From Ignavibacteriaceae bacterium (GTDB lineage Bacteria; Bacteroidota; Ignavibacteria; Ignavibacteriales; Ignavibacteriaceae): DNA of 64,000 nucleotides. Location: assembly GCA_031292455.1 (NCBI GenBank), contig JARLHC010000056.1:49084-113083 (forward strand), given 5' to 3'. Positions within the stretch are counted from its first letter, which is position 1; each line of letters begins with the position of its first letter. Below the pieces are notes generated by a model that was not told where the DNA came from, did not search any database, and saw only the letters and a program-made list of their open reading frames with translations. Shown here piece after piece: positions 38,009 through 55,937 of this stretch. The position numbers were made by a program, and so were the translations under genes.

Positions 38009-38898
38009 AACAAAATACCTGCCGAAAATAGAAGGCCGAATATTGCTAAAAACTTTGCAGTTAGTTCAAGTGTTCTGTTAAGATCCTTTCCCTCATATGA
38101 ATACAACATTTTTGCAAGATTATAGGCCATTGGAATTGTGAAGTAAGGAAGGAAAACCCAATAGCTGAATTCAAAACCAATAAACAGAATCAGTGGAATT
38201 ATGAAGGATATAAAGAGGAGGAATATAAACTGGTACCTTGTAAATGATCTGCCGAATTTTACTGCAAGTGTATATTTATTTGCTGCTCTGTCTTCATCTA
38301 TATCCCGATAGTTATTAACAACAAGAATATTGGTAATTAAAGCTCCGACAGGAATCGAACAAAGAAATGGAAGATAGGTTAAAGAATGAGCCTGTACATA
38401 ATAAGTTCCTACCGTACCGACAATTCCAAAGAACATAAATACAAACAGATCACCTAATCCATTATATGCAAGCGGATAGGGACCGGCTGTATAAGCGATC
38501 CCTGCTAATATTGAAGCAATACCTATTAACAACACAAATATCCCTCCCGAATAAACCAGGTAAAGCCCCAATATAAAAGCTGATAAAAAAACTATTGCTA
38601 TTCCCGCTTTCATTTCCTTTACGGTAATGAGTCCATTTACCATAACACGAAGTGGGCCTTTCCTTTTTACATTATCTGCCCCTTTGAGATAATCATAAAG
38701 ATCATTCGTAAAATTCGTTCCGATTTGAATCAGGAGAGAACATAGCAAAGCTATAAATGCATTGAGAAGTATAAACTTATTATCGCTATATGCTGCTGTT
38801 GAACCAACTATTACGGGAACTACTGCAGCTGGCAGTGTTCTTGGTCTTGCAGCAATTATCCAGCTTTTAATCTTATTTATTTCAGTTACTTCATTCAT
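38005..38898 (-). CDS. menA: 1,4-dihydroxy-2-naphthoate polyprenyltransferase
   Basis: UbiA-family Asp-rich motifs NDLYDYLKGAD and YRDIDEDRAANK. The protein is polytopic. Confidence 0.9.
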   Translation of the reverse strand: MNEVTEINKIKSWIIAARPRTLPAAVVPVIVGSTAAYSDNKFILLNAFIALLCSLLIQIGTNFTNDLYDYLKGADNVKRKGPLRVMVNGLITVKEMKAGIAIVFLSAFILGLYLVYSGGIFVLLIGIASILAGIAYTAGPYPLAYNGLGDLFVFMFFGIVGTVGTYYVQAHSLTYLPFLCSIPVGALITNILVVNNYRDIDEDRAANKYTLAVKFGRSFTRYQFIFLLFISFIIPLILFIGFEFSYWVFLPYFTIPMAYNLAKMLYSYEGKDLNRTLELTAKFLAIFGLLFSAGILL

Positions 38899-39737
38899 TA
38901 AGGAAGCTTAGGAAATTTATTAAACTCAGGTTTTCTTTTTTCAAGATATGCTTTCTTTCCCTCCTGTGCTTCCTCACTCATATAATATAGTAATGTTGCA
39001 TTACCTGCCAGTTCCTGAATTCCTGCCTGCCCGTCGAGTTCCGCATTAAATGCTGATTTCAATAGTCTGATTGCCATAGGACTGTGCTGGAGTATCTGTT
39101 TAGCCCACTCAACTCCTTCCTTTTCAAGTTCCTCTACGGGCACAATTTTATTGACCATTCCCATGTCTAATGCTTCTTGTGCATTATACTGTTTGCAAAG
39201 ATACCATATCTCCCGAGCTTTTTTCTGACCGACAGAGCGGGCCAGAAAACTTGATCCGAATCCACCATCAAAGCTCCCCACTTTGGGTCCTGTTTGTCCG
39301 AATATTGCATTATCAGCTGCAATTGTGAGATCGCAAACTATGTGTAGAACATGCCCACCGCCGATAGCATATCCTGCAACAAGAGCAATAACAGGTTTTG
39401 GAATACTCCTTATGAGTTTCTGAAGGTCCAGCACATTTAATCTCGGCACACCATCGCTGCCAAGATATCCTTTTTCTCCTCTTATTCGCTGATCTCCGCC
39501 TGAGCAGAATGCGTACTTACCATCCTTTGCAGGACCATAACCTGTTAATAATATAACACCAATTGATTGATCCTCCCGGGCGTCTGAAAACGCTTCATGC
39601 ATCTCTATTATGGTTTCGGGGCGGAATGCGTTTCTGACTTCTGGACGGTTAATTGTTATTTTGGCAATACCATCCATCTTTTCATAAATAATATCCTTAT
39701 AAGCTTTAACTCTTAACCAATTAAATTTCATATTCAT
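38898..39737 (-). CDS. menB: 1,4-dihydroxy-2-naphthoyl-CoA synthase
   Basis: Crotonase fold with [26 protein letters not shown] and [10 protein letters not shown], all typical of MenB. Confidence 0.95.
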
Positions 39738-39795
39738 CCTGTTCCGTTTAATTACTAAAATAAATTTAATAAAAGAAGTGGAATTATGGACATTA

Positions 39796-40617
39796 TTAAA
39801 TTACGCGTAGGAATTTATTTACTGCTTCTATGAACTTATGGGGTTCTTCAAGATGTGTATTATGGCCAGCATTCTTAATAATCAGATGCTCTGCATTTGG
39901 GAAAAATTTAACCATACTATTGTTAATATCGGTGAATTTTGAATCAAGTTCACCCGTAATAAGCAATGTTTTTACAAATATATCTTTAACATAGTCATAT
40001 AAAGGTATCATTTTACCTGTGCCCGAATATCGAAGTGAATTGGCCAGACCTATAGTATTGTTTTCAAGTTTTTTCTCTCTAATTAGATTGCGTATTTTAT
40101 TTGAAAACCTTCTTTGTGTATTAAATAGTTCCAGATTCATCCAGTAATCTATAAATTTTTCGATGGGATTATTTTCAATAAAAGCGGCAAGTAATTCATC
40201 CTGATTGACTCTATCTTCTCTAAGTTGTTCATCACTGATTCCCCATGTACTGCTTTCAAGTATTAAGCCCTTAAGCATGGCTCCGTTTTTTAATGCAAAG
40301 TTAAGCGCTATTCTTCCTCCAAATGAATATCCGGTGAGGATTATTTTTTTATTACATAGACTGAGGATTATTTCCTGGAGTTGATTAACAATTGAATCGA
40401 TAGAATAGTTATAACCCTCTTTGGGTGAATCGCTTTTACCATGTCCTACTAAATCGACTAAATAATAATTGTATGATTTATTGAGTGAAGATACTATAGG
40501 TATCCAATCATTTGCACATCCGGTAAAACCATGAAGGAAAAATACCGAGTCACCAGAGGCTTCATTATTTATAATATTTTCAATATTCAACTGAATATCT
40601 AAATATTTTATAAACAT
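39796..40617 (-). CDS. menH: Alpha/beta hydrolase, probable SHCHC synthase
   Basis: FFLHGFTG and the nucleophile elbow GYSFGG. It sits between menD and menB. Confidence 0.75.
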
Positions 40618-40667
40618 TATTAACTGATTTCTTTTTAGTTGTTGTAAGTAGTAATTTAAGAAGAATA

Positions 40668-42539
40668 TTATTGTGATTGTCGTTTAATTAAACTGTTTAA
40701 CAGCTCATTGCTTTCCTGCCAGTATTGGTTTCTCAATTTCAGAGAACTAACTGAATCTGTATTTATTTCGATTACACATGCTTTCTTACCTGTACCCGTC
40801 TTACGCAGTATTTCTTTCAAATCCGGCCAGCTTGTTACCCTGGAGTAATTAACACCAAACGCTTTTGTAAGCTTTTCGAAATTCAGTTCATGAGGGGTAA
40901 TAAAATATTCCTGAAGGAAATCGGGATATCTGGAAACCGGCAAGGAATTAAATATTCCTCCACCATTATTATTAATAAGAATAACAATTAATGGAATAGA
41001 ATATTTTTTTGCAATCAGTAAGGCATTTATATCATAATAAAATGCAAGATCTCCTGTAATTAAGTAAACAAAATCTTTATTTTCAGATGCAATTCCAAAT
41101 GCAGTGGAGATTATTCCGTCAATTCCGCTCGCACCTCTATTATTATATATTTTTAATTTCTTTGGACTGCAGGATGCCCAATAATCAAAATCCCTTACCG
41201 GGAGGCTATTTGACAGCATTATAGACGAATTAGAGGGGACAGTATCAAGCAGTTCTTTTATAATTCTTATCTCATTAGGAAAGCCGGAATTAAAAAGCAT
41301 ATTCTTTTTGAGATGCTCTAATGACTTGTCCGCCTCAATATAAGTCGTTAACCAGCAATCTTCATTTTGAATATCCTGACTTATTGGATAATATTCTAAA
41401 ACACTTTTACAGAAAAGAGTTGGGGAGCATTTATATAATTTTCCAGAATGGTTTGCATCAAAAACGTCACCTTCTTCATTTATCATTATTTTCTCAGCTG
41501 AATATTTCCCATAGAAATCTTCCAGTCCCTTAGAAATATTAGTTCTTCCAAAATGCAATATTAACTCTGGCATGCAGTTCTCTATAAAAGTAGCAGACCT
41601 GAACATAGCCTCATAATTGCATACAATATTTTCTCCATTACCTTGTGTTCCGGTTATTCCGGAAGATTTATTTGCTTTTGTAGATGGCGTTTCCGTATCA
41701 GACCCTTTCAGTTCAGGGGAGTAGGTCGGACAAGATAGAAATCTTAGTTGAGAACATCCGTCTGCTATTATAGGGTATTTCGTTAGTTTACTGATTTTCA
41801 AAATATTAGTATGGAATTCATCACTAAGCATTTCCGGGCCTACAATTATCAATCCTCTTCGAATGTTTTTAAGTTTTTCTAAGATCTGTAAAAACCATTT
41901 CTCTTTGTCTAAACTTATTGCCGTGCTCTTTCTTCCGGGCTTATAAATAGTTTTTATTAGTAACGAATGTATTTGATGATTTACCTCATCAGTAAAGTTA
42001 TCGGGTTCAAAAGGTTTATTAAAAGGAAAGTTTATATGAACCGGGCCCTTGTTTTTATGAGTGCTGATTTCAATTGCTTTGATTGCTAATCTTTTCAAAG
42101 CAGTGATTTTATTCTCTGACATTAATGGGAGTCCGGCATCAGCAAAGAATCTGATATGATTTCTATACAGATTGTCCTGATTTATGGTCTGGTTTGTCCC
42201 AGTATTTCTCAGCTCAGGGGGTCTGTCAGCAGTGCAAATGAGAAGTGGAATTCTCTGATGGTATGCTTCGACTATTGCAGGGTAATATTCAACAGCTGCA
42301 GTTCCTGATGTACAAACCAGAGCAACGGGTGATCCTATGCTGTTTGCTAAACCCAAAGCAAAGAAGGCAGAGCTTCTCTCATCAATAATTACATACTTTC
42401 TAATATTCTTATTTTGTGCAAATGCCCATGTTAAAGGTGTATTTCGCGAACCGGAGGAGATACATACATATTTAACACCGCAGGCAGCGATTTCATTAAC
42501 GAAAGATTCGGCCCATGCAATATTTCTATTAATTTTCAT
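40668..42539 (-). CDS. menD: SEPHCHC synthase (ThDP-dependent)
   Basis: The N-terminus WAESFVNEIAACGVKYVCISSGSRNTPL and the ThDP motif GDLAFYYDINAL...NNNGGGIF are present. At 623 aa it is longer than usual. Confidence 0.9.
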   Translation of the reverse strand: MKINRNIAWAESFVNEIAACGVKYVCISSGSRNTPLTWAFAQNKNIRKYVIIDERSSAFFALGLANSIGSPVALVCTSGTAAVEYYPAIVEAYHQRIPLLICTADRPPELRNTGTNQTINQDNLYRNHIRFFADAGLPLMSENKITALKRLAIKAIEISTHKNKGPVHINFPFNKPFEPDNFTDEVNHQIHSLLIKTIYKPGRKSTAISLDKEKWFLQILEKLKNIRRGLIIVGPEMLSDEFHTNILKISKLTKYPIIADGCSQLRFLSCPTYSPELKGSDTETPSTKANKSSGITGTQGNGENIVCNYEAMFRSATFIENCMPELILHFGRTNISKGLEDFYGKYSAEKIMINEEGDVFDANHSGKLYKCSPTLFCKSVLEYYPISQDIQNEDCWLTTYIEADKSLEHLKKNMLFNSGFPNEIRIIKELLDTVPSNSSIMLSNSLPVRDFDYWASCSPKKLKIYNNRGASGIDGIISTAFGIASENKDFVYLITGDLAFYYDINALLIAKKYSIPLIVILINNNGGGIFNSLPVSRYPDFLQEYFITPHELNFEKLTKAFGVNYSRVTSWPDLKEILRKTGTGKKACVIEINTDSVSSLKLRNQYWQESNELLNSLIKRQSQ

Positions 42540-43920
42540 TATTGAACAGAGAAAGTATAGTATTCATTTTAATTTCAGTTTCCTCGTACTCAGATGCCGG
42601 ATCAGAACCTTTTACTATTCCGCATCCAGCGTAAATATAAAGGTTATTATCATTTAATAATGCGGATCTTATGGCGACAACAAGATCCATTTTTTCCGGA
42701 GAAATGGAACCTATTATCCCGCTAAACATACCCCTGTCAAATCCTTCATTTTCTTTAATATATTTTAATGCAGATCCTTTAGGCGATCCGCAGATTGCCG
42801 GAGTAGGGTAAATAGCATTTATCAGATTATATAAATGTTCACTGGATTTTAGCTCTGCCTTTATAGGAGTATAAATATGCTGGATATTCGAATATTTTTT
42901 TATTCTTGTATCGAATTGCCGCAGATTATAAACATAAGTTAAGGATGCTTCTCTTATGAAATCAATAACATAGTTATGTTCCTGGGTATTCTTATTATCC
43001 GATATCAGGTTATTGGCAATTGTATTATCCTCTTCTTCAGTTTCGCCTCTTTTAGCTGAACCGGCAAGGGCATCGAATTCCAGTTCATTTTGATTTAGCT
43101 TTAAGAGCTGTTCCGGAGTCGCACCGAAAAGAACTGAATTACCGGACTTATAAAGGAAAATAGTACAGTTATTATAATTAACCGTAAGTTCCTGCAGAAT
43201 ATTGCTGAATAGAGGATATTTTTTAATCCGGGTAACTATCCTTCTTGATAACACTACTTTTCTGAAAAACCCTTCTTCGATTTTCAGCAGTGCGTTTGAA
43301 ATCAGAGAGTACCATTTCTCCCTGTCATTATCATTAATCAGAAACTTTATTATAGCAGGATTATTTTGGCAAATAAATTCATTATTCTTTATTCTCTCTA
43401 AAGTAATCAGAAAATCAAGCTGATCTTGGGGTGGGTATTTAGCATCTATATAAAAATTAAGGATTAACCAATGATCCTCACCTTTTTTATAAAAAAGAAA
43501 TCGTGGAATAAACCAGCCATTATCTGCGAAATCTTTCCATTCTTCAGATTTACAGCCAGAGCTAAATTTAGTTCCTCCCAAAAACAAGGGAAATGTATCA
43601 TTAGAGGTAAAATCAAAGTTGCTTATCCGTTTTTTTGATAAATCTGATATTGTATTTTCCAATATGGAAAAATTGTTTTCCTCTGTAATATTTAAGAAAT
43701 AAGCTTCTTCAAATGCCAAAAGGATAAGTCTTTCTTCCGGCCTATTAAAATAAAAAACCTTTTTATCTTCCGTCAGGAGGGGGTCTATAATTGAAAGAAA
43801 ATCTGTCTCATCTAATTTATAAGCAAAACTCACAAGAGTTTCTTTGTTTATATCTACAGATTTTAAATTATTAAGAAACGACAATACAGCTTTTTTAAGA
43901 TCGGGAATAGGTAAGGTCAT
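42529..43920 (-). CDS. menF: Isochorismate synthase
   Basis: Chorismate-binding C-terminus: TPAICGSP, RGMFSGIIG, YAGCGIVKGSDPASEYEETE. It overlaps the menD start by 11 nt. Confidence 0.85.
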   Translation of the reverse strand: MTLPIPDLKKAVLSFLNNLKSVDINKETLVSFAYKLDETDFLSIIDPLLTEDKKVFYFNRPEERLILLAFEEAYFLNITEENNFSILENTISDLSKKRISNFDFTSNDTFPLFLGGTKFSSGCKSEEWKDFADNGWFIPRFLFYKKGEDHWLILNFYIDAKYPPQDQLDFLITLERIKNNEFICQNNPAIIKFLINDNDREKWYSLISNALLKIEEGFFRKVVLSRRIVTRIKKYPLFSNILQELTVNYNNCTIFLYKSGNSVLFGATPEQLLKLNQNELEFDALAGSAKRGETEEEDNTIANNLISDNKNTQEHNYVIDFIREASLTYVYNLRQFDTRIKKYSNIQHIYTPIKAELKSSEHLYNLINAIYPTPAICGSPKGSALKYIKENEGFDRGMFSGIIGSISPEKMDLVVAIRSALLNDNNLYIYAGCGIVKGSDPASEYEETEIKMNTILSLFNNEN

Positions 43921-43944
43921 TGTTAAGTTTAATAAAGGGTAAAA

Positions 43945-44901
43945 TTAAAAAATTATATCCTGTTCTATGGTGTCAAGTAACTTCAGATAGCTATCATATC
44001 TTTCCGGAAATATTTTTTCATCTTCAACTGCACGGATAACTTCACAATCAGGTTCATGATTATGTGTACACGTATTAAATCTGCACTTCTTAATATAAGG
44101 AAGAAAATCCTTGAAATAATGTCCCAGGTCCTCCTTTCTGATTCCATAAGGATCAATTTCTCTAATTCCGGGAGTATCGATTACAAATGTATTCTGATTA
44201 ATCCTGAACATAGTAGAGGTAACAGTAGAATGAGTTCCTTTTTCATTAAAAGTGCTGACTAACTTTGTTTTAAGATTCAATTGTGAATAGATTTTATTAA
44301 GCAGGGATGATTTACCAACACCAGACTGACCCCAAAGAACGTTTTTCTTTCCTGTAAAGAGTTTTTTTAATTTATCCAACCCTATATTATTCTTAGCGCT
44401 TGTTCTAATTACTTTATAGCCTATCGTTGAATAAAGCTTTTCCCATTCAGAAAGAAGATTTTCCTGGTCCAGGTCTTCTTTATTTATAATAATATAGCAG
44501 TTAAGATTTGCACTTTCACCTACCACAAGTAAACGGTCAACAACCTTATTATTAAATAAAGGTTCAAATATGCTTGTAATTATAAAGAAATTATCGACAT
44601 TGGAAGCAATTATCTGCTCAAGTCTTTCGCCTCTATAGCTAGAGCCTTTCATTTTGGGAGCTTTACGGGAGATATAATTTATTCTCTTTTCTATATTGTA
44701 AATGGAACCAGTTCCATCTTCATTCAGATCGTAGTCCACATAGTCCCCAACAGCAACAATATCAGTCAAATAAAGTTTGTCTTTCTTCATATTAAATTCT
44801 TTTTTAAATCTCCCCTTTAATGAACACCTGACAACATCATTTTCATCTTTTGTAAAAACGTAATAATCCTTACTTTCAATTCTACTGATTAAGCCTCTGA
44901 T
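43945..44901 (-). CDS. rsgA: Ribosome small-subunit-dependent GTPase A (circularly permuted GTPase)
   Basis: NKEDL (G4), GQSGVGKSSLLN (G1), DTPG (G3) and the zinc finger CRFNTCTHNHEPDC. The listed ORF starts at the ATG at 44790. The frame stays open upstream and encodes an OB-fold-like N-terminus (RGLISRIESKDYYVFTKDENDVVRCSLKGRFKKEFN). My 5' boundary is an ATC at 44901, 5 nt after a GGAGG, and is uncertain. Confidence 0.85.
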   Translation of the reverse strand: MRGLISRIESKDYYVFTKDENDVVRCSLKGRFKKEFNMKKDKLYLTDIVAVGDYVDYDLNEDGTGSIYNIEKRINYISRKAPKMKGSSYRGERLEQIIASNVDNFFIITSIFEPLFNNKVVDRLLVVGESANLNCYIIINKEDLDQENLLSEWEKLYSTIGYKVIRTSAKNNIGLDKLKKLFTGKKNVLWGQSGVGKSSLLNKIYSQLNLKTKLVSTFNEKGTHSTVTSTMFRINQNTFVIDTPGIREIDPYGIRKEDLGHYFKDFLPYIKKCRFNTCTHNHEPDCEVIRAVEDEKIFPERYDSYLKLLDTIEQDIIF

Positions 44902-44920
44902 TATAACCTCCGGTTTAAAT

Positions 44921-44949
44921 AAAAAAAGCGCCCTAAAAAAATAGGGCGC
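44921..44949 (-). terminator. Rho-independent terminator of the lipoprotein/barrel operon
   Basis: An 8-bp stem: GCGCCCTA (44928-44935) pairs with TAGGGCGC (44942-44949) around a 6-nt loop. On the minus strand T7 (44927-44921) follows, 32 nt after the barrel gene stop. Confidence 0.8.
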
Positions 44950-44980
44950 CTATCAGAATAAGTCAAATGGAGGAGGAAAT

Positions 44981-46447
44981 TCAAAATCTATATGTACCGC
45001 TTAGAATAAAATGATTTTCTTTTATATCCTGCGAAGTTCTGGATAGGTTTGTACTGTAATTATCGCCAATATCATTATACCAGCCATGAGCAAATGCAAG
45101 GTCGAGATCGATTGTCTCATCCGCAAGGAATCCGAGACCGGCTGTTACAAATTTCTTATCGAAGGAAGAGGGGTCTCCTTTGAATGCAGAAGGTTGAACA
45201 AAATATCCGGCTCTAACTCTTAAGCCAACTGCCGGAATAGTATATTCTGCTCCAAGATTATAATTAATTACCGAAGTAAGGTCGGTCTGAATTTCCTTAT
45301 TTAATCCAGCAATATAATCAGCGGTGATTCCGTCAGGGTTTTGAAATTTAAGCTGTGAATAATCAATAATGGTTCCCTGCGCGCTCAATATTAATCCTCT
45401 AATATTGAATGAAAAGCCAGCGCCGATTTCAAATGGAGTTATAATATCGTATTGAACATTGTCGCTGAAATCTGAAGAAACGAGGGGATATGAATAGTTC
45501 TGGAATTGACCATATCCATTAACAGTGAAACTTTCCTTTACAGTATAGGTTCTGGGAAACTGGACAGTTAAACCAAAACGGGAAAGCCTGTTAAATTGAT
45601 AAAGGATACCAAACTTTGCATCCCAACCTGAAAGATCCCAATGAGTCAATCTGTTAAGGTAAAAAGTTTTGAAATTCAGAGTATTGGGGTCATTTGGATC
45701 TGTCTGTTGTCCCTGGTAAATATTATTGATATCATCTTCATAATAATCATTATTGGAATCATAAGTTCCAGAAATAATATTCAGATTTAATCCAACAAAC
45801 AAATTCCGATAGACTTCTATAGCACCGGATAATGTCCAGTTATTTATACCTCCTGAATTAAGGATAGTCCCACTCTGATTCAGATTGCCATTTAGTATAG
45901 TAGGTGTATAATTGATTATATTGCCCTGTGCGTCCTTAATGGCAGAATTGAGACCAAGTTCATAAGTCAGGTCAGAGGGCAGATATTGAATAAAGGATGA
46001 GTTCTTGTTATAACCGTTAAAACTAAGAGCACCGTTAAAATCCTTTGTATTTTGATAGGATAAGCCAAATACAAGGCTTCCGCGCATTGTGGGAAATGGG
46101 AATGCAAAGCTGACGCGATTTAATGTTGTAGAACTGGCTGTATTATTAGAACTCTGGCCAATCAGAGTTCCATTAGAACTCAAAGTTGCGTCGTTACTAA
46201 AATTTGAATAATTCAAACCGCCTGAAAATTCCATTCTTTTTAATAAGCCAAAACCGGCAGGATTGAAATATCCGGCGGTAGCATCATCACTTAAGCTTAT
46301 GTAGCTATTTCCCATGCCTAAAGCTCTTGCCGAAGACCCTATTCCTGGATATCCAAGTCTTAAGGCATCAGTTATTGTTTGAGTATATACAGTCGTTGTT
46401 AGAATTATTAATAAAATCAGTAGTTTTGTACAACTTCCGGTATTCAT
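44981..46447 (-). CDS. Outer-membrane beta-barrel protein, FadL/TodX/PorV-like
   Basis: It has a signal peptide. SARALGMGNSYISLSDDATAGYFNPAGFG resembles the N-terminal hatch motif of FadL/PorV-type barrels. Alternating beta-strand patterns follow, and the C-terminus ends in ...LSGTYRF (aromatic). Confidence 0.6.
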   Translation of the reverse strand: MNTGSCTKLLILLIILTTTVYTQTITDALRLGYPGIGSSARALGMGNSYISLSDDATAGYFNPAGFGLLKRMEFSGGLNYSNFSNDATLSSNGTLIGQSSNNTASSTTLNRVSFAFPFPTMRGSLVFGLSYQNTKDFNGALSFNGYNKNSSFIQYLPSDLTYELGLNSAIKDAQGNIINYTPTILNGNLNQSGTILNSGGINNWTLSGAIEVYRNLFVGLNLNIISGTYDSNNDYYEDDINNIYQGQQTDPNDPNTLNFKTFYLNRLTHWDLSGWDAKFGILYQFNRLSRFGLTVQFPRTYTVKESFTVNGYGQFQNYSYPLVSSDFSDNVQYDIITPFEIGAGFSFNIRGLILSAQGTIIDYSQLKFQNPDGITADYIAGLNKEIQTDLTSVINYNLGAEYTIPAVGLRVRAGYFVQPSAFKGDPSSFDKKFVTAGLGFLADETIDLDLAFAHGWYNDIGDNYSTNLSRTSQDIKENHFILSGTYRF

Positions 46448-47001
46448 TATTTCCGTCCTCCATCATTTCTGGTACCATCATTATTTCTAACTGAACCTGC
46501 ACCGGTATTTTGCCGGGGATTAGTAGTAGTATTGGAATTTGTTTTATTACTATTAGAATTAGTTGTAGTTGTTCCCGAGGTATATCCAAGGCTTGATACA
46601 GTTACTGGGGGGGTGTTTATTATATCACCTGTATTCCTATCGTTCCTGCCTCTTCCATCACCTGAATTTCTAAGTGTATTAGCATTTCCGTTCCTATTTA
46701 CAATTGTATTACTATTATTGTCATAACCAGGGCCGCTAACTGTTGGAGGAGTAACTGAATACCACCATGGAGTATGATAATAAGGCGCGTATGGGCCATA
46801 ATATGGTGCATAGTAAAAATCATCGTTATTACTGTTACTATAATTATCAGATTCGTTATAGTAGCCGGTAGTATCTGTAGAATAATATTCGCCTGAATTA
46901 TCTGAAGTTGGAAAATCCATTCCAGGACTCCATACTATGGTATAGCATCCAGTTATATTAAGGAAAATAAAAATAGCAGCAATACTTAATAATTTTTTCA
47001 T
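46447..47001 (-). CDS. Low-complexity lipoprotein B (Tyr/Pro-rich core, Asn/Thr/Arg/Gly-rich tail)
   Basis: Lipobox FLNITGC followed by YT. Core DDFYYAPYYGPYAPYYHTPWWYS. The tail is rich in N, T, S, G and R. The stop overlaps the barrel start (TAATG). I recognise no family. Confidence 0.6.
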   Translation of the reverse strand: MKKLLSIAAIFIFLNITGCYTIVWSPGMDFPTSDNSGEYYSTDTTGYYNESDNYSNSNNDDFYYAPYYGPYAPYYHTPWWYSVTPPTVSGPGYDNNSNTIVNRNGNANTLRNSGDGRGRNDRNTGDIINTPPVTVSSLGYTSGTTTTNSNSNKTNSNTTTNPRQNTGAGSVRNNDGTRNDGGRK

Positions 47002-47010
47002 TTTATTCCT

Positions 47011-47964
47011 TTATCGGCGTGAATGGCCACCACCGCTGTTTCCACCTCTGCTTCCGCCAGAGTTACCACCTCTATTAGAGGAACCAGAACTTCTATTTGA
47101 GCTGCCTCCGCTATGGTTTGGGGAAGAATATCTCTGCGGAGAAGAATTGTAAGTCCTTTGAGGAGGACGGTTACTTCTTGAATTTGTTCCATTTCCGCTT
47201 CTATTATTTCTAATATTAGGGTTTTGACTGTTACTATAATTTCTATTCCGGATATTAGGATTAGATCTTGGAGTTACAATATTAGTTCTGTTTCTAACAT
47301 TCGGCATATTAGTCCGAGGATTTGCAATTGTATTGCTGGTTCTGGACATAATATTTGTTTTACTTATTGTGTTTCTCGTAGTAGTAATACCATTTGTGGT
47401 AACTAACCGTGTTCTAACAGCATTTCTACTATAGATACCGGTACCAGTGGCAAGGGATCCTCTTACACCATAAACGCTATTTCTAACACTACTATTTCTC
47501 AAAGCATAGCCATCACCTGACCTGGTTCTATAAAACCCTGAATTATAAAATCCATGTCCATGATGGAATCCGCCGCCATAAGCAAAGCCCCAATATGGGT
47601 AATAGAAGAAGGGATCATAAGCATAATAGAATGGGGCACACCAGCCGTCATAGAAGAAAGGATCCCAATAGAAAGGGTCATAATAATGTCCTACACCGAA
47701 TCCAATAGCAACTGACGGATAATAATATGAATAAAATCTTCCATAGTAAGGGTAGGGTCCATTATCTACAGTTGCATCATTATTATCATTGTTATAAGTA
47801 GTATCCTGATCAGAGTAAGCATCATTGTTGTTATTAGTACTATACGAACCATTATCAGGATATTTATCCTCAGATCCTCGCGAAGCAATGTTAGTATAAC
47901 ATCCGGTGAGGAAAATACCGCTTAATAATAAAAGCAGTAACGGGGAATATTTCAAGATTTTCAT
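47011..47964 (-). CDS. Low-complexity lipoprotein A (aromatic-rich core, Asn/Arg/Ser/Gly-rich RGG-like tail)
   Basis: The ATG at 47964 has a GGAGG 8 nt upstream and gives MKILKYSPLLLLLLSGIFLTGC followed by YT. The core reads PYPYYGRFYSYYYPS...HYYDPFYWDPFFYDGWCAPFYYAYDPFFYYPYWGFAYGGGFHHGHGFY. The tail ends ...SGGSSNRSSGSSNRGGNSGGSRGGNSGGGHSRR. The listed start at 48060 adds 32 residues with no signal peptide. Confidence 0.6.
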   Translation of the reverse strand: MKILKYSPLLLLLLSGIFLTGCYTNIASRGSEDKYPDNGSYSTNNNNDAYSDQDTTYNNDNNDATVDNGPYPYYGRFYSYYYPSVAIGFGVGHYYDPFYWDPFFYDGWCAPFYYAYDPFFYYPYWGFAYGGGFHHGHGFYNSGFYRTRSGDGYALRNSSVRNSVYGVRGSLATGTGIYSRNAVRTRLVTTNGITTTRNTISKTNIMSRTSNTIANPRTNMPNVRNRTNIVTPRSNPNIRNRNYSNSQNPNIRNNRSGNGTNSRSNRPPQRTYNSSPQRYSSPNHSGGSSNRSSGSSNRGGNSGGSRGGNSGGGHSRR

Positions 47965-47992
47965 TTTATTTACCTCCACTAAAACTGTATAA

Positions 47993-48042
47993 ATATCTGC
48001 AAAAATCAGGCCTAAACAAAATTCTTTGCAGATATCATCTGC
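47993..48042 (-). promoter_or_regulatory. Inverted-repeat operator candidate upstream of the lipoprotein operon
   Basis: GCAGAT-ATC-ATCTGC is a perfect 6-3-6 palindrome at 48028-48042. A further GCAGATAT copy in inverted orientation (ATATCTGC on the plus strand) lies at 47993-48000. Both are 30-80 nt upstream of the ATG at 47964. Confidence 0.3.
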
Positions 48043-48060
48043 GTATTTATTAACAAGCAT

Positions 48061-48085
48061 CAGGAATTACTTGTATATATTTTTA
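48061..48085. repeat. 25-nt direct repeat, copy 1 (CAGGAATTACTTGTATATATTTTTA)
   Basis: It matches 48333-48357 (CAGCAATTACTTGAATATATTTTTA) at 23 of 25 positions. Confidence 0.6.
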
Positions 48086-48332
48086 TACTTTATTGTATAG
48101 TATAAAATACACATCAAATGAATAAATTGTTCCAAATTTAAGTGTTAATATTAAATTTGTAACTACCTGTCAAGTCTATCAGATTATATTAAGAACTTAC
48201 CCTGTTTTTTATGTTATCAGGTTATGAATATTAGACAAATATCAGCTTCAAAAGGTTTGAATATAGATAAGTTTATTTCCATTATTCTTAAGAGAAAGTT
48301 TGTTAAGTTAAATATAGCTGTAAATCCAACTG

Positions 48333-48357
48333 CAGCAATTACTTGAATATATTTTTA
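48333..48357. repeat. 25-nt direct repeat, copy 2 (spans the stop codon of the 48339..49112 gene)
   Basis: See copy 1. On the minus strand copy 2 encodes ...KNIFK-stop and copy 1 reads ...KNIYK-stop. Confidence 0.6.
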
Positions 48358-49112
48358 ATATATTCAATTTTAATGCTTCTGTCAGCGGTAGTAGGTGACC
48401 ACTTTTTATTGTTCAGCAAATCTCTTAAATCGAATCCTAAAGTAAATCCTTCCCCCATAACCCATCTTAATCCCATATTGAGATAACCGTTACCTTTGCC
48501 AAAATATTGGGTATTGTTATCGTTTAGAGCAAAGTCATATTCCCCAATGATGGAAAGGCTTGGTCCGATTGTTTTTTCAACGCCGACATTGAGGTCAATG
48601 TAGTTGTCTCCATCTCTGTTTTCCAGAGTATAATTCAGTGTTCCATGGAGGCTTAAAAATCCCAAGCAAGCAAAATTCTTGCTAACAGCACCGAAAAAAC
48701 CGGGAGATTTAATAGCATATCTGCCTGAGGAATCAAAATACAGACCCTTTCCCTGTGATTCAAAGCCAAAAGTTAAAGCAGGCATGACGAATGATTCATT
48801 AAATATCCGGAATCTTAAATTGACGCCAGGATATTTATACCAACCAGGTGAACCGGCGCCGATTATATTTGACCCGCCATAAGAAATGCCGAAATTGATA
48901 TTATCAAATACTCCCACCTCAATTTTTCCTATGAATGATCCGCCCGGCAATATATCAGAAGTTGCACCAACTAAGCCTTTTTCAAGAATTCCGGCTGTCA
49001 TCATATCAATAAGGGTTCGATTTTCATACTTGGCAGATTCCCCCGCTGTACCTTGGCTAAAACTGTTTGAAGTGAATAACAAACACATGCAAAGCAAAAT
49101 TATTTTTTTCAT
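48339..49112 (-). CDS. Small outer-membrane beta-barrel protein (hypothetical)
   Basis: Signal peptide MKKIILLCMCLLFTSNSFSQ, followed by alternating hydrophobic beta-strand patterns and Gly/aromatic-rich strands. 257 aa. I recognise no family. Confidence 0.55.
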   Translation of the reverse strand: MKKIILLCMCLLFTSNSFSQGTAGESAKYENRTLIDMMTAGILEKGLVGATSDILPGGSFIGKIEVGVFDNINFGISYGGSNIIGAGSPGWYKYPGVNLRFRIFNESFVMPALTFGFESQGKGLYFDSSGRYAIKSPGFFGAVSKNFACLGFLSLHGTLNYTLENRDGDNYIDLNVGVEKTIGPSLSIIGEYDFALNDNNTQYFGKGNGYLNMGLRWVMGEGFTLGFDLRDLLNNKKWSPTTADRSIKIEYIKNIFK

Positions 49113-49193
49113 ATTCCCTCAGTATCTATTTGAGAATGGTAAATTAATATACAAAAGATAATAATAATGCAGTATAAATAGAAATCATTTCCA

Positions 49194-49577
49194 TTAAACG
49201 ATATTCGGTTCGATAACAATTTCTATTGTAGAGGGAAGGAATGAATATCTTGACTTGATAGTAATGGATACTTTACCGGATTTTTCTTTGGACCGTAATT
49301 TCAATATCCCATTATTGTTATCAAGGGTTAAAACCTCTACAAGTTCTGCTCCCTCATTAAATATAAATTCTGAATATGATTTTCTAAAAGGAGCAATCCA
49401 TCCAAATGAATTTAAGGGGACTGCCTCTATTACTATCGTTGACGAATTATCAGCATATAATTTATCCGGAGTAATTTTATAGATTACTTCATATATGCTG
49501 AATATATAATGGAAACCGGCGAATCCTGCAATAAGGATTAAAATTATTAATATAAATAAGATATTATTTCTCCTCAT
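49194..49577 (-). CDS. Membrane-anchored hypothetical protein (N-terminal TM helix plus ~95-aa beta-rich domain)
   Basis: TM helix ILFILIILILIAGFAGF, then a beta-sandwich-like segment (TIVIEAVPLN...GKVSITIKS...IEIVIEP). It starts 2 nt after the ATP-grasp stop. Confidence 0.5.
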   Translation of the reverse strand: MRRNNILFILIILILIAGFAGFHYIFSIYEVIYKITPDKLYADNSSTIVIEAVPLNSFGWIAPFRKSYSEFIFNEGAELVEVLTLDNNNGILKLRSKEKSGKVSITIKSRYSFLPSTIEIVIEPNIV

Positions 49578-49578
49578 T

Positions 49579-50502
49579 TTATCTTCTTAATTGGTTTAAT
49601 TTTTTATCATGGATAATGGTTTTTACCATAAGATCAATAATTCTTATAACGACTTTATCCGGGACACCATCTGTGTGTTTGGACTTAATTCTCATATCGC
49701 ATTGATCATTGACATAATCAATTACAATAAACTTCTTATTCTCAGGAATTACAATTTCTGTAGAAAAGAAATCAAGTCCAGTAATCAGTGCAATCTTTTT
49801 TGTAATCAGAAGAAGTCTGCTCAGTCTGAAATTTTTTATTTCTTCTGAGTTCAGTTCATCATAGATATGTGTTAAATCATTCCACCAGACAGGGATAGGC
49901 CGTCCGAATGCCCAAAAAGATCTAAACCATGCTCTTCTTGAATTCATTATGGAAGGGTAAATCTTTTGTTGAAGGATATATTTATCATCTGAATTAGTAA
50001 GTCTTTCCTCAAGAACTTCTTTAAGAGATTCAGCTCCAGTGACTACACCTATTCCACCTCCGGTATTATTGCATGGTTTAATAATAAAAGGTCTTCCCAA
50101 TTTTGAAAGTTCATCAATAGAGATAAAGATATTTTTTAATTGATTATGAGGAGGAATAATGATTGAGTAGGGAACTTCGAGGCCATTAGTTATGAATTCC
50201 AGATGCATGCTTGCTTTATCTATGGCATGTCGAATATTCTTGTAAGGATTAAATATTTTAGTTTTTCTGCGTGTTAATATTTTACCGAGCTGGACAAAGT
50301 TCTCATTAACATCTGATGCCCGGTCAAGATAAAAGTTAAAGCCTAATTTTTTATATTTAACTAATTCAGTGATTTCATTAATATTTCCTGCTGTAATTCT
50401 GAATGAGGAGAGTCCAGCTTTATGCACAGCCAACTCGATAAGGTCAATGAAATCATCATCATATTCCCATACAAAAGCGAGACCTATATCATAAATTTCC
50501 AT
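49579..50502 (-). CDS. ATP-grasp domain protein (RimK-like ligase fold), unknown substrate
   Basis: GRPFIIKPCNNTGGGIGV (P-loop-like ATP-grasp segment), YILQQKIYP, and FFSTEIVI...FIVIDYVNDQCDM (Mg/ATP-binding end). Confidence 0.7.
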   Translation of the reverse strand: MEIYDIGLAFVWEYDDDFIDLIELAVHKAGLSSFRITAGNINEITELVKYKKLGFNFYLDRASDVNENFVQLGKILTRRKTKIFNPYKNIRHAIDKASMHLEFITNGLEVPYSIIIPPHNQLKNIFISIDELSKLGRPFIIKPCNNTGGGIGVVTGAESLKEVLEERLTNSDDKYILQQKIYPSIMNSRRAWFRSFWAFGRPIPVWWNDLTHIYDELNSEEIKNFRLSRLLLITKKIALITGLDFFSTEIVIPENKKFIVIDYVNDQCDMRIKSKHTDGVPDKVVIRIIDLMVKTIIHDKKLNQLRR

Positions 50503-50739
50503 AGGTGATAAGATTAACCTATTTAATCCGAAAATTAATTAAAATATATAAAAATCTAAATAAATATAACCTTTTAGCAGTGTAGATTCTCCTGCTGTAA
50601 GTTTTATTATTACTATATTTACGAAGAGAAATTAAAATAAATAATAATATTAGTTCACAATAAACGCCGCAAATGCGGTTCATTATCATCTAATTATTGC
50701 ATTTATTAATTACCCGATCATTTATATTTTTCAATTCAT

Positions 50740-52548
50740 ATGATAAAATATTTTGCAACTGCAATATTAGCTCTTGTTTTTTTTAGCTGCTCATCAAATA
50801 AGGGGTTAGTTAAAGAGAATGGTACTTCAAATGCAACTTCGGTTAATCCGATTGAGAGGGGCGACTATGCCTTAAATCACTTTATAAATGGTTCTGTAGC
50901 AGAAGCGAAGGGGGATTATGAAACAGCAATTACAGAATATAATGCGGCACTTTCGAAAGATACAAATTCGGCAATTTATTATGCGTTAGCCAAGAATTAT
51001 TATATGCTGGATAAAATTCCACAAGCACTATTTAATGCCAAAAGGTCAATTGATCTGAAGAATAGCAAGATGGAATATTATGAACTACTGGCAGACATTT
51101 TTAATTTCGCAAAGCAGAATGATTCAGCTGCTGTAATTTATGAAAAGATCATTAATATGGATTCCACGAATTATTCGGCATATTATAAACTTGCACGGCT
51201 TTATGAAATTTCAAAGCCCTTAAAAGCTATTGAAATTTACAATAAGTTAACCGGCTATATAGGTCCTGACTGGAGTATTCTGATGAGAGTAGGGGAGTTA
51301 TATGAAAAGCTTGGAGACAATGATTCTGCTGCAAATTCAGTTGTTAAGCTTTTAACGATAGATCCAAATAATACTGCACTTAAGAAATTATTATCCGAGA
51401 TTTATGAAAAAGGGAAAAAATATAATCAAGCTCTTGAAATTATTAATGATATATTAGAAACATCTCCTGATGATCTTGATGCGCATGAAAGGAAAGCCCA
51501 GTTATATATTATTCAAAATAAATGGGAAGAAGCCTCGAGAGAATACGATATACTTCTTAAACAACCTGATATACCATTTGAAAGCAAACTCAGGATAGGT
51601 GCTTCATATTTTGCGAAATCACTTTCAGATTCTTCTTTGTATCCCATAGTTAAAAATTTCTTTACAAAACTGGATAAAGATACATCAACTGTACAGCTAA
51701 AAATATACTTAGGAGCTCTCAGCCTATTACTAAAAGATGATGAAAGTTCTGAAAAGGATCTTATTTCTGCATCAGAAATGACAGATCATAATTCACAGAA
51801 TTGGTTACAAGTAGGCGGATTATTATTTGATAGTAAAAAATACAAAGAAACAGCGCGGTTAATAAAATTCGCTGTGGCAATTTATCCTGAAGATTTTGCA
51901 GTTAACTTTATTGTCGGATTATCGCTGGCTCAAACTGAAAACCATACAGAAGCGAGAGTATACTTAAAGAAAGCAACAGAATTATCACCAAATGATGTTA
52001 ATGCATTATCTGCTTATGGTTATACGCTAAACCAGTTGAAAGATTATGATAATGCTGTTAAATATCTTAATAAAGCATTAACTTTAAAGCCAGGCGATAT
52101 AAATCTCCTTGGCACGATGGGACTTATTTATAATACACAGGAAAAATGGGTTGAGTGCGACAGTGTATATGAAAAGGCACTTAAAATTGATTCAACAAAT
52201 GCATTAGTAAATAATAATTTTGCCTATGCTTTATCTGAAAGAGGGTTACAACTTGAGAGAGCAATGAACATGGTGAATATTGCATTGAAAGCGGATTCGA
52301 GCAATTCCTCATATTTAGATACGAAGGGATGGATTTTTTATAAACTCAAACAATATGAGAAGGCAAAGGATTATATCCAGCGGGCTATTTCAGCCGGAGG
52401 TGAATCGGCTACAACATTAGAGCATCTTGGAGATGCAAAATTTATGATAGGAGAAAAGAGATCTGCAGTTGAACTATGGCAGAAAGCTTTTAATCTTGAC
52501 ACTACAAATAACAATCTTAAAAATAAAATTGAAAAAGGTGAAATTTGA
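50740..52548 (+). CDS. Tetratricopeptide-repeat lipoprotein
   Basis: Lipobox LVFFSCSS. It has many 34-residue A/Y/L-patterned repeats (for example AIYYALAKNYYMLDKIPQAL, ALSAYGYTLNQLKDYDNAVKYLNKAL). Confidence 0.85.
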   Translation: MIKYFATAILALVFFSCSSNKGLVKENGTSNATSVNPIERGDYALNHFINGSVAEAKGDYETAITEYNAALSKDTNSAIYYALAKNYYMLDKIPQALFNAKRSIDLKNSKMEYYELLADIFNFAKQNDSAAVIYEKIINMDSTNYSAYYKLARLYEISKPLKAIEIYNKLTGYIGPDWSILMRVGELYEKLGDNDSAANSVVKLLTIDPNNTALKKLLSEIYEKGKKYNQALEIINDILETSPDDLDAHERKAQLYIIQNKWEEASREYDILLKQPDIPFESKLRIGASYFAKSLSDSSLYPIVKNFFTKLDKDTSTVQLKIYLGALSLLLKDDESSEKDLISASEMTDHNSQNWLQVGGLLFDSKKYKETARLIKFAVAIYPEDFAVNFIVGLSLAQTENHTEARVYLKKATELSPNDVNALSAYGYTLNQLKDYDNAVKYLNKALTLKPGDINLLGTMGLIYNTQEKWVECDSVYEKALKIDSTNALVNNNFAYALSERGLQLERAMNMVNIALKADSSNSSYLDTKGWIFYKLKQYEKAKDYIQRAISAGGESATTLEHLGDAKFMIGEKRSAVELWQKAFNLDTTNNNLKNKIEKGEI

Positions 52549-53333
52549 AGCTTCTTTTATTCGTAATCTCCTCGATCATATTATTATCGCTTTTTACCTT
52601 AACGGGTTGTGTTCCATCAAAACCTACTGAAGAAGTAGAGATTCTACCGACAGAACGGTTAGTTACAAAACTTGAAGCTAACAGAAGAAGAATAAGGACT
52701 TTTGAAGGGAATGGAACAATTACGATAAAGACCAATGACATTAACACTAGCGCTTCATTCAGGATAGTTCTTGTAAAGCCAGATTCCATTTATCTTACAA
52801 TAATGGGTCCGTTTGGAATGGAATTAGCGCAGGCACTGGTAACGGGGAAAGATTTCATTTTTTATGATGCATTACAAAATACGGCATATAAGGGGGCACA
52901 AAGCAGCGATATACTGCGTCAGATATTCAAAATCGATCTTTCTTTCGGAGATATAATGGATGCATTTATAGGATCTGTGAACTTAACCAACAGTCTCTAT
53001 AAATCACCCAACAGTTACAAGGTTATTTACGATAAATACATGCTTACTTATAAAGATTCATCCACAGATAATATATCTGAGTATGAAGTAGATGTAAGGC
53101 ATCTTGGGATACTCCATTACCTTCTCAAGAACAGCAGTAATGAAGACTTACTTGAAGGAAAGTATTCCAATTTTGAAGTATTGGAAACAGTTGCAGTGCC
53201 GACAAAGATAGAAGTGATGAACAGGAAACAGAATGAGACTGTACTAATCGATTATAAGTCAATGACAGCTAACAAGAAAAAAATCTATATCGATTTTAAG
53301 CTTCCTGATGATGCTTCTATAATTAAATGGTAA
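52545..53333 (+). CDS. DUF4292-like lipoprotein (LolB-like size and position)
   Basis: TTG start overlapping the TPR stop. Lipobox LFTLTGC. The segment GNGTITIKTNDINTSASFRIVLVKPDSIYLTIMGPFGMELAQ resembles DUF4292 from memory only. Confidence 0.55.
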   Translation: MKLLLFVISSIILLSLFTLTGCVPSKPTEEVEILPTERLVTKLEANRRRIRTFEGNGTITIKTNDINTSASFRIVLVKPDSIYLTIMGPFGMELAQALVTGKDFIFYDALQNTAYKGAQSSDILRQIFKIDLSFGDIMDAFIGSVNLTNSLYKSPNSYKVIYDKYMLTYKDSSTDNISEYEVDVRHLGILHYLLKNSSNEDLLEGKYSNFEVLETVAVPTKIEVMNRKQNETVLIDYKSMTANKKKIYIDFKLPDDASIIKW

Positions 53334-54610: not shown

Positions 54611-54647
54611 GTTTTATATCAGTCATATAGAGACTAATTTTAACCAC

Positions 54648-55910: not shown

Positions 55911-55937
55911 AATGCAACATAATATTAAGTAATAATA

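Follow-up and report, generated by a model that had tools for sequence, protein, structure and literature searches.

For a long time, outer-membrane barrels of the FadL type were regarded solely as hydrophobic-compound channels. In the superphylum Fibrobacterota-Chlorobiota-Bacteroidota (FCB), PorV and then, in 2025, BamG were recognized as barrels on which partner proteins dock. BamG holds the surface lipoprotein BamH by the conserved, lipidated tail at the N-terminus of BamH (PMC12611786, PMC12578637), and in several phyla of this superphylum bamG and bamH lie side by side (PMC12611786, Supplementary Table 1; PMC12578637). Here we describe an operon in a stretch of 64,000 nt from an Ignavibacteriaceae metagenome-assembled genome. 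This stretch is called the window in the following, and all positions refer to it unless another locus is named. The operon encodes two lipoproteins with a core of aromatic residues, A and B, and a FadL-type barrel. The lipoprotein-barrel pair recurs in related and in distant loci, and a specific functional partnership of the barrel with these lipoproteins is likely. That a FadL-type barrel can have a cognate lipoprotein is already known in principle. This barrel clade, the families of disordered aromatic-core lipoproteins and their obligatory pairing appear to be undescribed; a literature search for this lipoprotein-barrel module found no relevant paper.

As in BamG-BamH, the gene of an FCB barrel with 14 strands and the FadL fold stands beside that of a lipoprotein. 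The barrel also carries a conserved N-terminal extension, which is shorter than that of BamG from B. thetaiotaomicron. In contrast, the present barrel is about 60-100 residues longer, its putative partners are predicted to be disordered instead of folded, and a sigma-54-type promoter precedes the genes. PorV and PorQ are also FadL-like barrels of this superphylum, which bind partner proteins and do not serve lipid transport; PorV binds its cargo on the extracellular loops. The barrel described here stays below all cut-offs for these proteins, and the signal peptides of A and B are those of lipoproteins, with no type IX C-terminal sorting domain in either. The channels FadL, TodX, TbuX and CymD share with the present barrel the fold, the hatch domain, the NPA motif and membership in Pfam Toluene_X. 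However, the identity is about 11-16%, these channels have no known lipoprotein partner, and the present barrel has an extra conserved N-terminal extension and no catabolic context.

Slam of Proteobacteria is a 14-strand outer-membrane barrel encoded next to lipoproteins that it displays; it has a DUF560 and a TPR domain, and its substrates are folded. The logic of barrel-adjacent lipoproteins is the same, but the barrel family is unrelated and no similarity was detected. In RcsF-OmpA/C/F and LptM-LptD, a lipid-anchored, largely unstructured polypeptide engages a barrel via its N-terminal segment. These systems differ in the barrels, and their lipoproteins are much shorter and have neither an aromatic core nor charge blocks. 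Curli (CsgA/B-CsgG) and Fap are comparable insofar as genes for a secreted, self-associating protein and for an outer-membrane protein occur together. A and B, however, are lipoproteins, the barrel has the FadL fold and not that of CsgG or FapF, and there are no family matches or repeats. Mussel foot protein 3, FUS-type low-complexity and RGG proteins and the GHGxY peptides of squid beak are Tyr/Arg 'sticker' proteins of eukaryotes without lipid anchor. Here the analogy is one of composition, without homology, and at most hints at a physical behaviour: Tyr/Trp/Gly/Asn-rich and Arg-rich segments, a GHGFY-type motif in A and predicted disorder.

Organization of the operon

Lipoprotein A, lipoprotein B and the barrel are encoded by three consecutive genes on the minus strand, with no space for separate promoters between them. 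Gene A (47964-47011; ATG at 47964, stop codon at 47013-47011) encodes 317 amino acids (aa), gene B (47001-46447; ATG at 47001, stop codon at 46449-46447) 184 aa and the barrel gene (46447-44981; ATG at 46447, stop codon at 44983-44981) 488 aa. A and B are separated by 9 nt, AGGAATAAA, and the stop codon of B overlaps the start codon of the barrel gene (TAATG). Ribosome-binding sites of the GGAGG type were found ahead of A (GGAGGT, 47977-47972) and ahead of the barrel gene. A strong intrinsic terminator (44951-44926, minus strand), whose 10-bp stem contains 6 G-C pairs and leads into the T run TTTTTATTT, ends the unit. The three-gene operon with its 9-nt gap, its stop-start overlap and its terminator, as proposed in an earlier note on this DNA, was confirmed from the sequence. 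Judged by this layout, A, B and the barrel are one co-transcribed set.

A longer open reading frame (ORF) for A with a start at 48060 was rejected, because the orthologues begin with MK and both signal peptide and ribosome-binding site fit the start at 47964. The GC content of the unit equals that of its surroundings and gives no indication of horizontal transfer. An Rfam search of 44700-50700 gave no match, and no DNA tandem repeats underlying the low complexity of A and B were found.

Occurrence of the module

A scan of one genome per species yielded 329 stretches encoding relatives of the barrel. The best 80 of these 329, all from Ignavibacteria assemblies and with barrel identities of 51-81%, were used together with four further loci. 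In 81 of these 84 loci, B lies directly upstream of the barrel gene on the same strand. A was found directly upstream of B in 78 loci, in 72 by phmmer and in six via ORFs of CYTQ... lipoproteins. Where A or B is missing the contig ends upstream, except for L055, which has a divergent CYT lipoprotein in the place of A. The gap between A and B is mostly 3-7 nt, and the one-base overlap of B stop and barrel start is present in 35 loci. A wider gene order is conserved as well: genes for a TPR protein, a LolB-like DUF4292 protein and an M23 peptidase (divergent), for a 307-aa, a 127-aa and a 257-aa protein, the last a small outer-membrane protein, then A, B, the barrel, rsgA and menF-menD. The recurrence of the triad, for which the earlier note had suggested checks of co-occurrence and frame conservation, was thereby upheld. 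Both lipoprotein frames are intact and syntenic over the 84 related loci and under purifying selection, so they are not chance frames.

Eight distant loci were added, seven reached via representatives of the barrel and one (L086) via a distant match to A. Their barrels have identities of 24-36%. All eight have an aromatic-core lipoprotein immediately upstream of the barrel, in otherwise unrelated neighbourhoods, which argues that the conserved core is the aromatic-core disordered lipoprotein plus this barrel clade. B is an extra copy in some lineages and the small outer-membrane protein a frequent companion. Locus L095 (GC content 47%) has the order A-B-barrel, with an A-type lipoprotein of 335 aa and a B-type lipoprotein of 202 aa (...SCYTVL...PAPWWIP...). 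In L086 (GC content 54%) the small outer-membrane protein, an A-type lipoprotein (346 aa, GCYTQV...) and the barrel follow each other without B, beside a penicillin amidase. On a 4.7-Mb contig (L092) the order is cysS, small outer-membrane protein, A-type lipoprotein (306 aa), barrel and rsgA. L089 (277 aa, GCYTVIRAP...YYYDPFWFDPLW) and L093 (405 aa, ...VPVVVPWWRHYYGWGGYPS...SRRSR) have a single barrel each. The gene for the 642-aa lipoprotein of L090 (GC content 53%; ...IPVIVPWWDRYDAYYYYPSS...GGGRKRGGR) ends with a stop codon that abuts the barrel start, and L094 has an A-type ORF (GCYTQLSKP...). In L088 (3296-6413) two tandem barrel copies follow a single A-type lipoprotein (355 aa, GCYTQL...FSYYYPS...(GYGYGGG)n), and a gene upstream encodes a type IX C-terminal sorting domain.

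The homology of these lipoproteins was tested with profiles built from Ignavibacteriaceae sequences only, and composition-preserving shuffles served as controls. The A profile detected the A-type lipoproteins of L095 (76 bits), L092 (66 bits), L094 (36 bits) and L088 (27 bits), with shuffles at 6 bits or less. The B-type lipoprotein of L095 was detected by the B profile at 37 bits. No match to Pfam was obtained for the distant lipoproteins. A neighbour of the barrel in L089 clusters at 90% identity with a protein of a Fidelibacterota assembly; therefore the module probably reaches beyond Ignavibacteria.

It could be argued that A and B are fast-evolving filler lipoproteins which have no specific relation to the barrel next to them. 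Their divergence is high, with 28-29% mean column identity, and gene callers often miss or mis-frame them. However, the ratio of nonsynonymous to synonymous substitutions (dN/dS), computed against the two closest loci L005 and L006 with dS close to saturation, is 0.09-0.17 and falls to 0.025 in the aromatic core of A (against L005). Furthermore, start and stop codons are translationally coupled, and the pairing outlasts a complete turnover of the surrounding genes in the eight distant loci. Mere neighbourhood is thus highly improbable.

Some variants of the lipoproteins were observed. Those of L090 (2071-3999) and L093 (3748-4965) combine a B-like (V/I)PV(V/I)VPWW with an A-like YYPS and a very long Ser/Arg tail and have no C-Y-T; they may represent an ancestral fused form or convergence. 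Short A-like lipoproteins of 191-202 aa (P0136, encoded at 7001-7609 of L087, P0137 and P0139) have an aromatic core and an RGG-like end without the long basic middle. P0136, the only one of these genes for which the context was fetched, is encoded alone with no adjoining barrel.

In the low-complexity genes alternative frames stay open, and the public gene calls are wrong there. Shadow ORFs of the window are for example 46532-46726 (plus strand), 46998-47192 (minus strand) and 47224-47406 (plus strand). In L001 (4326-5354) two shadow ORFs of 74 and 108 aa replace A in the gene calls. In L094 (about 3400-4100) A was missed by the gene caller and the barrel call is stretched in 5' direction over it. 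Two new families and one barrel subfamily are definable from the present alignments.

The barrel and its relatives

A database entry with 100% identity to the barrel bears the title 'MAG: hypothetical protein P4L27_05070 [Ignavibacteriaceae bacterium]'. Names given to proteins of the module in databases are 'hypothetical protein', 'long-subunit fatty acid transport protein' and 'outer membrane protein transport protein', and two A-type clusters are called 'uncharacterized membrane protein YgcG'. The barrel had been described as FadL/PorV-like, and the FadL fold was found again by family and structure comparison. Pfam Toluene_X (PF03349) matches residues 39-461 with 39.1 bits (cut-off 29.7, E 4.3e-10). 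The AlphaFold2 model (predicted local distance difference test, pLDDT, 80; predicted template modelling score, pTM, 0.77) contains 14 long strands, long extracellular hairpins and loops, periplasmic turns of 2-4 residues and a break in strand 3 (residues 135-138). In a Foldseek search against the PDB, FadL of E. coli ranked first (E 8e-17, target TM-score 0.63) and BamG of B. thetaiotaomicron (BtBamG) second (1.2e-16), followed by BamG of P. gingivalis (PgBamG) and F. johnsoniae (FjBamG) and then by TodX and TbuX. PorV was not among the top 50 matches.

The sequence contains a signal peptide, the hatch motif ARALGMG...SDDA...NPAG and a C-terminal YRF. N62-P63-A64 are invariant. The N-terminal extension Q23..DALRLG is conserved, with Q23, D27 and R30 invariant, and the dN/dS of the barrel gene is 0.06-0.07. 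Extension lengths were counted from the barrel sequence and from alignments of BtBamG and PorV. From the predicted signal-peptide cleavage to the hatch Arg there are about 17 residues in the barrel, compared with about 8 in TodX/TbuX, 19 in PorV and 24 in BtBamG. Compared with TodX/TbuX the barrel has about 8-9 residues more in this stretch, and compared with BtBamG about 7 fewer; the criterion for BamG is about 10-12 residues beyond FadL. A conserved N-terminal extension separates the non-transporting BamG from transporting FadL channels (PMC12578637).

The best NCBIfam matches of the barrel are all far below cut-off. BamG (NF053685) reached 57.8 bits (cut-off 250). With the PorV/PorQ models used (NF033709, NF033710, NF033711, NF052325), 50.8 bits were obtained for PorV_fam (cut-off 90), 28.9 for T9SS_OM_PorV (250) and 36.3 for PorV2 (325). 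The N-terminal region showed the best alignment with the PorV and PorV2 models. For a sample of 83 barrel relatives spread over the top 150, the BamG model was the top NCBIfam match in 75 at E<=1e-5 (best E 6.5e-25), and none of the 83 reached the cut-off for BamG, PorV or PorQ. A search of the PDB with the single barrel sequence gave no match; profiles were required. The profile of the 83 relatives matched TbuX of Ralstonia with 53.0 bits, BtBamG with 52.7, CymD with 47.3, PorV with 34.9 (over the N-terminus only) and PgBamG with 31.8; FjBamG was not listed. With an exhaustive HMMER search, 7,478 barrel relatives were found at E<=1e-3 among 1.84 billion cluster representatives (50% identity). 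By its scores below the BamG, PorV and PorQ cut-offs and the equal scores for TbuX and BtBamG, the barrel falls into a large FadL-superfamily clade without a name, which is specifically neither BamG nor PorV. The locus defines a third, large and unannotated FadL-type clade in this superphylum, with 492 clusters at 50% identity and E<=1e-30.

The frequent BamG matches raise the question whether the operon is the ignavibacterial counterpart of bamG-bamH. The barrel would then lie against BamA, and A and B would replace the folded canopy formed by BamH. BamG as top NCBIfam match of the barrel and nearly all relatives, the second rank of BtBamG in Foldseek and a synteny like that of housekeeping genes (rsgA, cysS, LolB-like genes) agree with this. 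Liu et al. listed BamG and BamH as gene neighbours in I. album (IALB_1455/IALB_1454) and in further phyla of this superphylum (PMC12611786, Supplementary Table 1); this also counts for a BamG-BamH pair, and the I. album genes may correspond to the present locus. On the other side stand the large distance to the BamG cut-off in the barrel and all relatives, the score of BtBamG, which is no better than that of TbuX, and the weak or missing matches to the other two BamG proteins. Moreover, BamH is a folded two-domain protein (PMC12611786), whereas A and B are without any match and A is predicted to be disordered. Nor would one expect an essential housekeeping subunit to have a sigma-54 promoter. 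We regard this explanation as quite improbable.

A second possibility is an uptake system. The barrel would be a genuine channel of the FadL/TodX type, and the aromatic-rich lipoproteins would act at its mouth as a capture sponge for hydrophobic or aromatic substrates. The Toluene_X match above cut-off, FadL as best structural match, TbuX, CymD and TodX among the best PDB profile matches and the invariant NPA hatch motif fit such a channel, and the modelled break in strand 3 is compatible with lateral opening. But catabolic genes for such substrates are absent beside the module in every context examined, and known transporters of the FadL type need no lipoprotein partner. The conserved N-terminal extension seems to resemble that of the non-transporting BamG and PorV more than known transporters (PMC12578637). 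A disordered protein with a tail of charge +29 would also be an odd substrate binder. An uptake function is improbable.

Structure and conservation of the lipoproteins

Lipoprotein A starts with a signal peptide and lipobox (residues 1-21, FLTG-C; L-T-G-C22) followed by Y-T. The lipobox fits [LVI][ASTVI][GAS]C with G and C invariant among the orthologues, and lipidation is predicted. Three blocks follow, all given here for the minus strand. The acidic block (47755-47898, residues ~22-70) is rich in N/D/S/T/Y and has a net charge of about -7. The aromatic core (47530-47754, residues 71-145) consists of 47% Y/F/W and 9% aliphatic residues and contains YxYYPSxxxG, YYDPFxWDPF, a WC cysteine and FHHGHGFY. 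The basic tail (47014-47529, residues 146-317; net +27 with 27 Arg and 1 Lys) holds an LRNxxxxR motif, PPQRTY / SPQRY repeats and the RGG-like C-terminal end ...GGGHSRR.

An alignment of about 30 diverse orthologues gave as family motifs of A GCYTQxAxR, YRRYxWxYYPSxSxG, YYDPFxWDPF and a frequent WC cysteine and, on the tail side, [LIV]RNNxGxRN, Y[ST]PP[RK] repeats and a terminal ...SGRRR. The block pattern is present in 68 A orthologues, with median values of -11 for the charge of the N-terminal block, 50% aromatic residues in the core and +29 for the charge of the tail. The last residue is Arg in 67 of these 68, and the median tail length is about 198 residues. For the whole of A the dN/dS is 0.09-0.14, for the acidic block 0.21 and for the tail 0.12-0.18. 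Together with the very low value of the core, this indicates purifying selection on every block. AlphaFold2 (alignment of 21 sequences) gave a mean pLDDT of 38 and a pTM of 0.13 for A, and with this value A is predicted to be disordered along its whole length.

Lipoprotein B has the lipobox NITG-C (I-T-G-C19), again followed by Y-T. It fits the same pattern with invariant G and C, and lipidation is likewise predicted. The lipidated N-terminus C-Y-T-I-V-W-S-P (46924-46947, minus strand; family consensus CYT[VI]xW[STDN]P) is part of an acidic block of residues 19-60 with a net charge of -7. The aromatic segment (46747-46821, minus strand; residues 61-85; YYxxYYGxYxxYYxxPWW) contains 44% Y/F/W. 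The tail (residues 86-184) is rich in N/T/G/S/R and ends with VRNNDGTRNDGGRK (46450-46491, minus strand), the second copy of [LIV]RNxxGxR in B. In 30 diverse orthologues G18, C19, Y20, T21, P26, P78, W79, W80, R178 and R183 are invariant, while W24, R172 and G176 are at least 90% conserved. The family motifs are GCYT[VI]xW[STDN]P, YYGxYxxYYxxPWW, RNxxGxRG, TPPxT and a terminal RNNxGxRNxGxGR[KR]. The dN/dS of the whole gene is 0.14-0.17.

A and B have the same order of acidic block, aromatic segment and tail, with B at a smaller scale. Composition analysis confirmed this unusual common layout, which the earlier note had described. In the same note A and B were called paralogues. An hhalign comparison of the two profiles aligned only 35 columns (probability 98%), comprising signal peptide, lipobox and C-Y-T. 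Beyond that the architecture and one short motif, [LIV]RNxxGxR, with one copy in A and two in B, are common to both. Paralogy is thus plausible and demonstrated for the N-terminus alone. In the 84 loci, all lipoproteins with C-Y-T after the lipobox belong to the A/B family; among 30 other unique lipoproteins it did not occur.

Searches of Pfam, NCBIfam and the PDB with sequences and profiles gave no family match for A or B, in agreement with their initial description as lipoproteins outside known families. Profile matches to low-complexity ribosomal proteins, to an antibody CDR-H3 and to the signal peptides of SLC53A1 and LptM were dismissed as chance; that to LptM covers the signal peptide only and is not meaningful. 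The lipoproteins had also been said to be unlike curli (CsgA/B) or Fap subunits. No Pfam match to these families at E<=1 was obtained for A, B or ten relatives, and neither imperfect repeat units nor repeat arrays were found in A and B. An amyloid nature, considered at the outset, is unsupported by repeat units, by similarity to curli or Fap or by the AlphaFold2 structure.

The export signal of Bacteroidota lipoproteins, a minimum of two acidic residues in the roughly six positions after the Cys, is present neither in A (C-YTNIAS) nor in B (C-YTIVWS). The consensus sequences after Cys, CYTQxAxR for A and CYT[VI]xWxP for B, contain no acidic export signal either. This suggests a periplasmic tether or spacer as an alternative. 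A and B would remain in the outer membrane on its inner leaflet, and their long, proline-punctuated, Arg-rich tails would extend into the periplasm and bind peptidoglycan or an inner-membrane partner non-covalently. In this way they would help to set the spacing or stability of the envelope, with a barrel that only anchors or organizes them. The length and strongly basic character of the tails, their Y[ST]PP[RK] repeats, which favour an extended conformation, the conserved basic C-terminal motif with Arg or Lys as final residue and envelope-biogenesis genes nearby (LolB-like DUF4292, M23 peptidase, TPR, polysaccharide genes) are in line with a tether. The very short periplasmic turns of the barrel model argue against it. 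Known partner binding in the superfamily, that of BamH and of PorV cargo, is extracellular throughout (PMC12611786, PMC12578637). A covalent form as in Lpp has little in its favour, as the C-terminal residue is not consistently Lys. In general, we consider a tether unlikely.

Proposed function

In the function proposed here the barrel would primarily be the partner of the neighbouring lipoproteins in the membrane and not a nutrient channel. It would bind the conserved lipidated C-Y-T... N-termini of A and B, hold them at the outer membrane and possibly help them to reach the cell surface. This docking is proposed on the basis of the pairing, which is kept through a full turnover of the neighbours, and of the analogies to BamG-BamH, PorV and Slam. 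In A and B the C-Y-T that follows the lipobox is invariant, and distant loci retain it. A barrel of the partner-binding type is suggested by the best NCBIfam matches, since BamG and PorV/PorQ are partner-binding FadL-like proteins of the superphylum. A and B would remain unfolded, each with an acidic Tyr/Asn block, a core of about 50% aromatic residues and a long Arg-rich tail. By contacts of Tyr and Trp with Arg, many copies could stick together and to anionic material or polymers. The outcome would be an envelope layer of protein with cohesive or adhesive character. The earlier note had speculated on adhesive or condensate-forming material that the barrel could export or anchor, and a Tyr-rich block beside an Arg-rich one, together with the known precedents of barrel-lipoprotein pairs, would fit this. 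The physical complex, the surface location and the self-association are inferred. The reading as a whole, including docking and display of A and B by the barrel, is a serious but tentative possibility, and the part concerning a self-associating coat is rather unlikely.

Several observations weigh against this proposal. With no acidic signal in A and B at positions +2 to +6, the known Bacteroidota rule gives no indication that they are surface-exposed; Ignavibacteria may differ in the signal. The lipoproteins of L090 and L093 were detected neither by the A nor by the B profile and have the architecture alone in common with them, so part of the apparently universal pairing may be convergence or lie beyond detection. 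In the barrel model the N-terminal hatch region is of poor confidence. The hatch is canonical for FadL (NPA, DDA), strand 3 is broken and TbuX and TodX are as close as BamG, which leaves room for a role in transport. Finally, the coat idea is drawn from composition, with which a self-associating or adhesive role would be compatible.

If the pair forms a complex, it would be a tractable model for the handling of unfolded lipoproteins by a barrel. It would also be a model for the role of Tyr-rich disordered surface segments such as loop 3 of BamA. This extracellular loop of Bacteroidota BamA has 38 residues, is disordered and is rich in Tyr, Gly and Asn (PMC12578637). Its composition resembles the blocks of A and B and may reflect a related surface property.

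Promoter and regulation

A candidate sigma-54-type promoter, AGGCCTGATTTTTGC (47999-48013, minus strand), precedes A. It has the form GG-N10-GC and is located 35 nt before the ATG of A. The match in the window, AGGCCTGATTTTTGCA, compares with the consensus TGGCAC-N5-TTGCW (GG at -24, GC at -12) with the GG/GC spacing kept, and the site is the sole match in the 64-kb window. Scanning for the sigma-70 consensus gave no result above shuffle expectation. Of 65 unique orthologous upstream regions, 64-65 contain the GG, all 65 the TTTG and 41 the final C, which is replaced by T in 11 and by A in 13. From promoter to ATG the modal distance is 33-35 nt, which would lead to a 5' leader of about 23 nt containing the ribosome-binding site. 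Near-canonical elements also precede the A-type genes of the distant loci L086 (TGGCACCAATCTTGT), L088 (TGGCACTGATATTGT) and L095 (TGGAACAATATTTGT); in L086 and L088 the element is TGGCAC-N5-TTGT.

The spacer upstream of A comprises 374 nt. It contains conserved non-coding blocks (48028-48133, minus strand) that are invariant in five aligned loci with barrels of 67-81% identity. These are GGAACAATT at 48133-48125, a palindrome-rich part at 48111-48072 and the palindrome GCAGATGATATCTGC at 48042-48028. The palindromic blocks, 40-125 nt upstream, are candidate activator sites. An NtrC-type sigma-54 activator of the response regulator type (31663-33018, minus strand; 451 aa) and a PAS histidine kinase (33028-34464, minus strand; 478 aa) are encoded about 13 kb from the operon. 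With activator and kinase in the window, the organism uses sigma-54 transcription; nothing links the activator at 31663-33018 to the promoter of A. In L087 the solitary A-like gene lies about 5 kb from a similar activator-kinase pair.

The most far-reaching reading is a sigma-54-switched system across Fibrobacterota-Chlorobiota-Bacteroidota. Its barrel would display disordered 'sticker' lipoproteins with Tyr/Trp core and Arg tail, which condense into a two-dimensional adhesive or protective coat. This appears distinctly unlikely. If true, the coat would represent a bacterial surface material of a type not described so far, and FadL-type barrels would have a new task.

Neighbouring genes

The gene directly upstream of A (48339-49112, minus strand) encodes a 257-aa protein with signal peptide that resembles a small outer-membrane beta-barrel. 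Its place upstream of A is kept in the Ignavibacteria loci as well as in L086 and L092. Neither a family nor a PDB entry matched the protein significantly, and the similarities to YjbH (E 0.11) and OmpA (E 0.67) are weak. The protein may belong to the module as a fourth component. Upstream of it, a 307-aa protein and a 127-aa membrane-anchored protein are encoded at 49194-50502 (minus strand); they are conserved there in Ignavibacteriaceae only. The 307-aa protein has a faint likeness to ATP-grasp proteins (D-Ala-D-Ala ligase, E 0.21) and no other.

The region 50740-61621 contains divergent genes for a TPR lipoprotein, a LolB-like DUF4292 protein and an M23 peptidase. Polysaccharide flippase and glycosyltransferase genes come next, and the region looks like an envelope-biogenesis neighbourhood. 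The trio of TPR, DUF4292 and M23 genes was also found near the module in L085 and L092. Directly downstream of the operon (36557-44790, minus strand), rsgA and a menaquinone operon with menF, menD and a hydrolase gene are located, with genes for an AMP-binding enzyme and a UbiA prenyltransferase farther away. In L086 a gene of the futalosine pathway lies about 6 kb upstream of the module; this is probably a coincidence.

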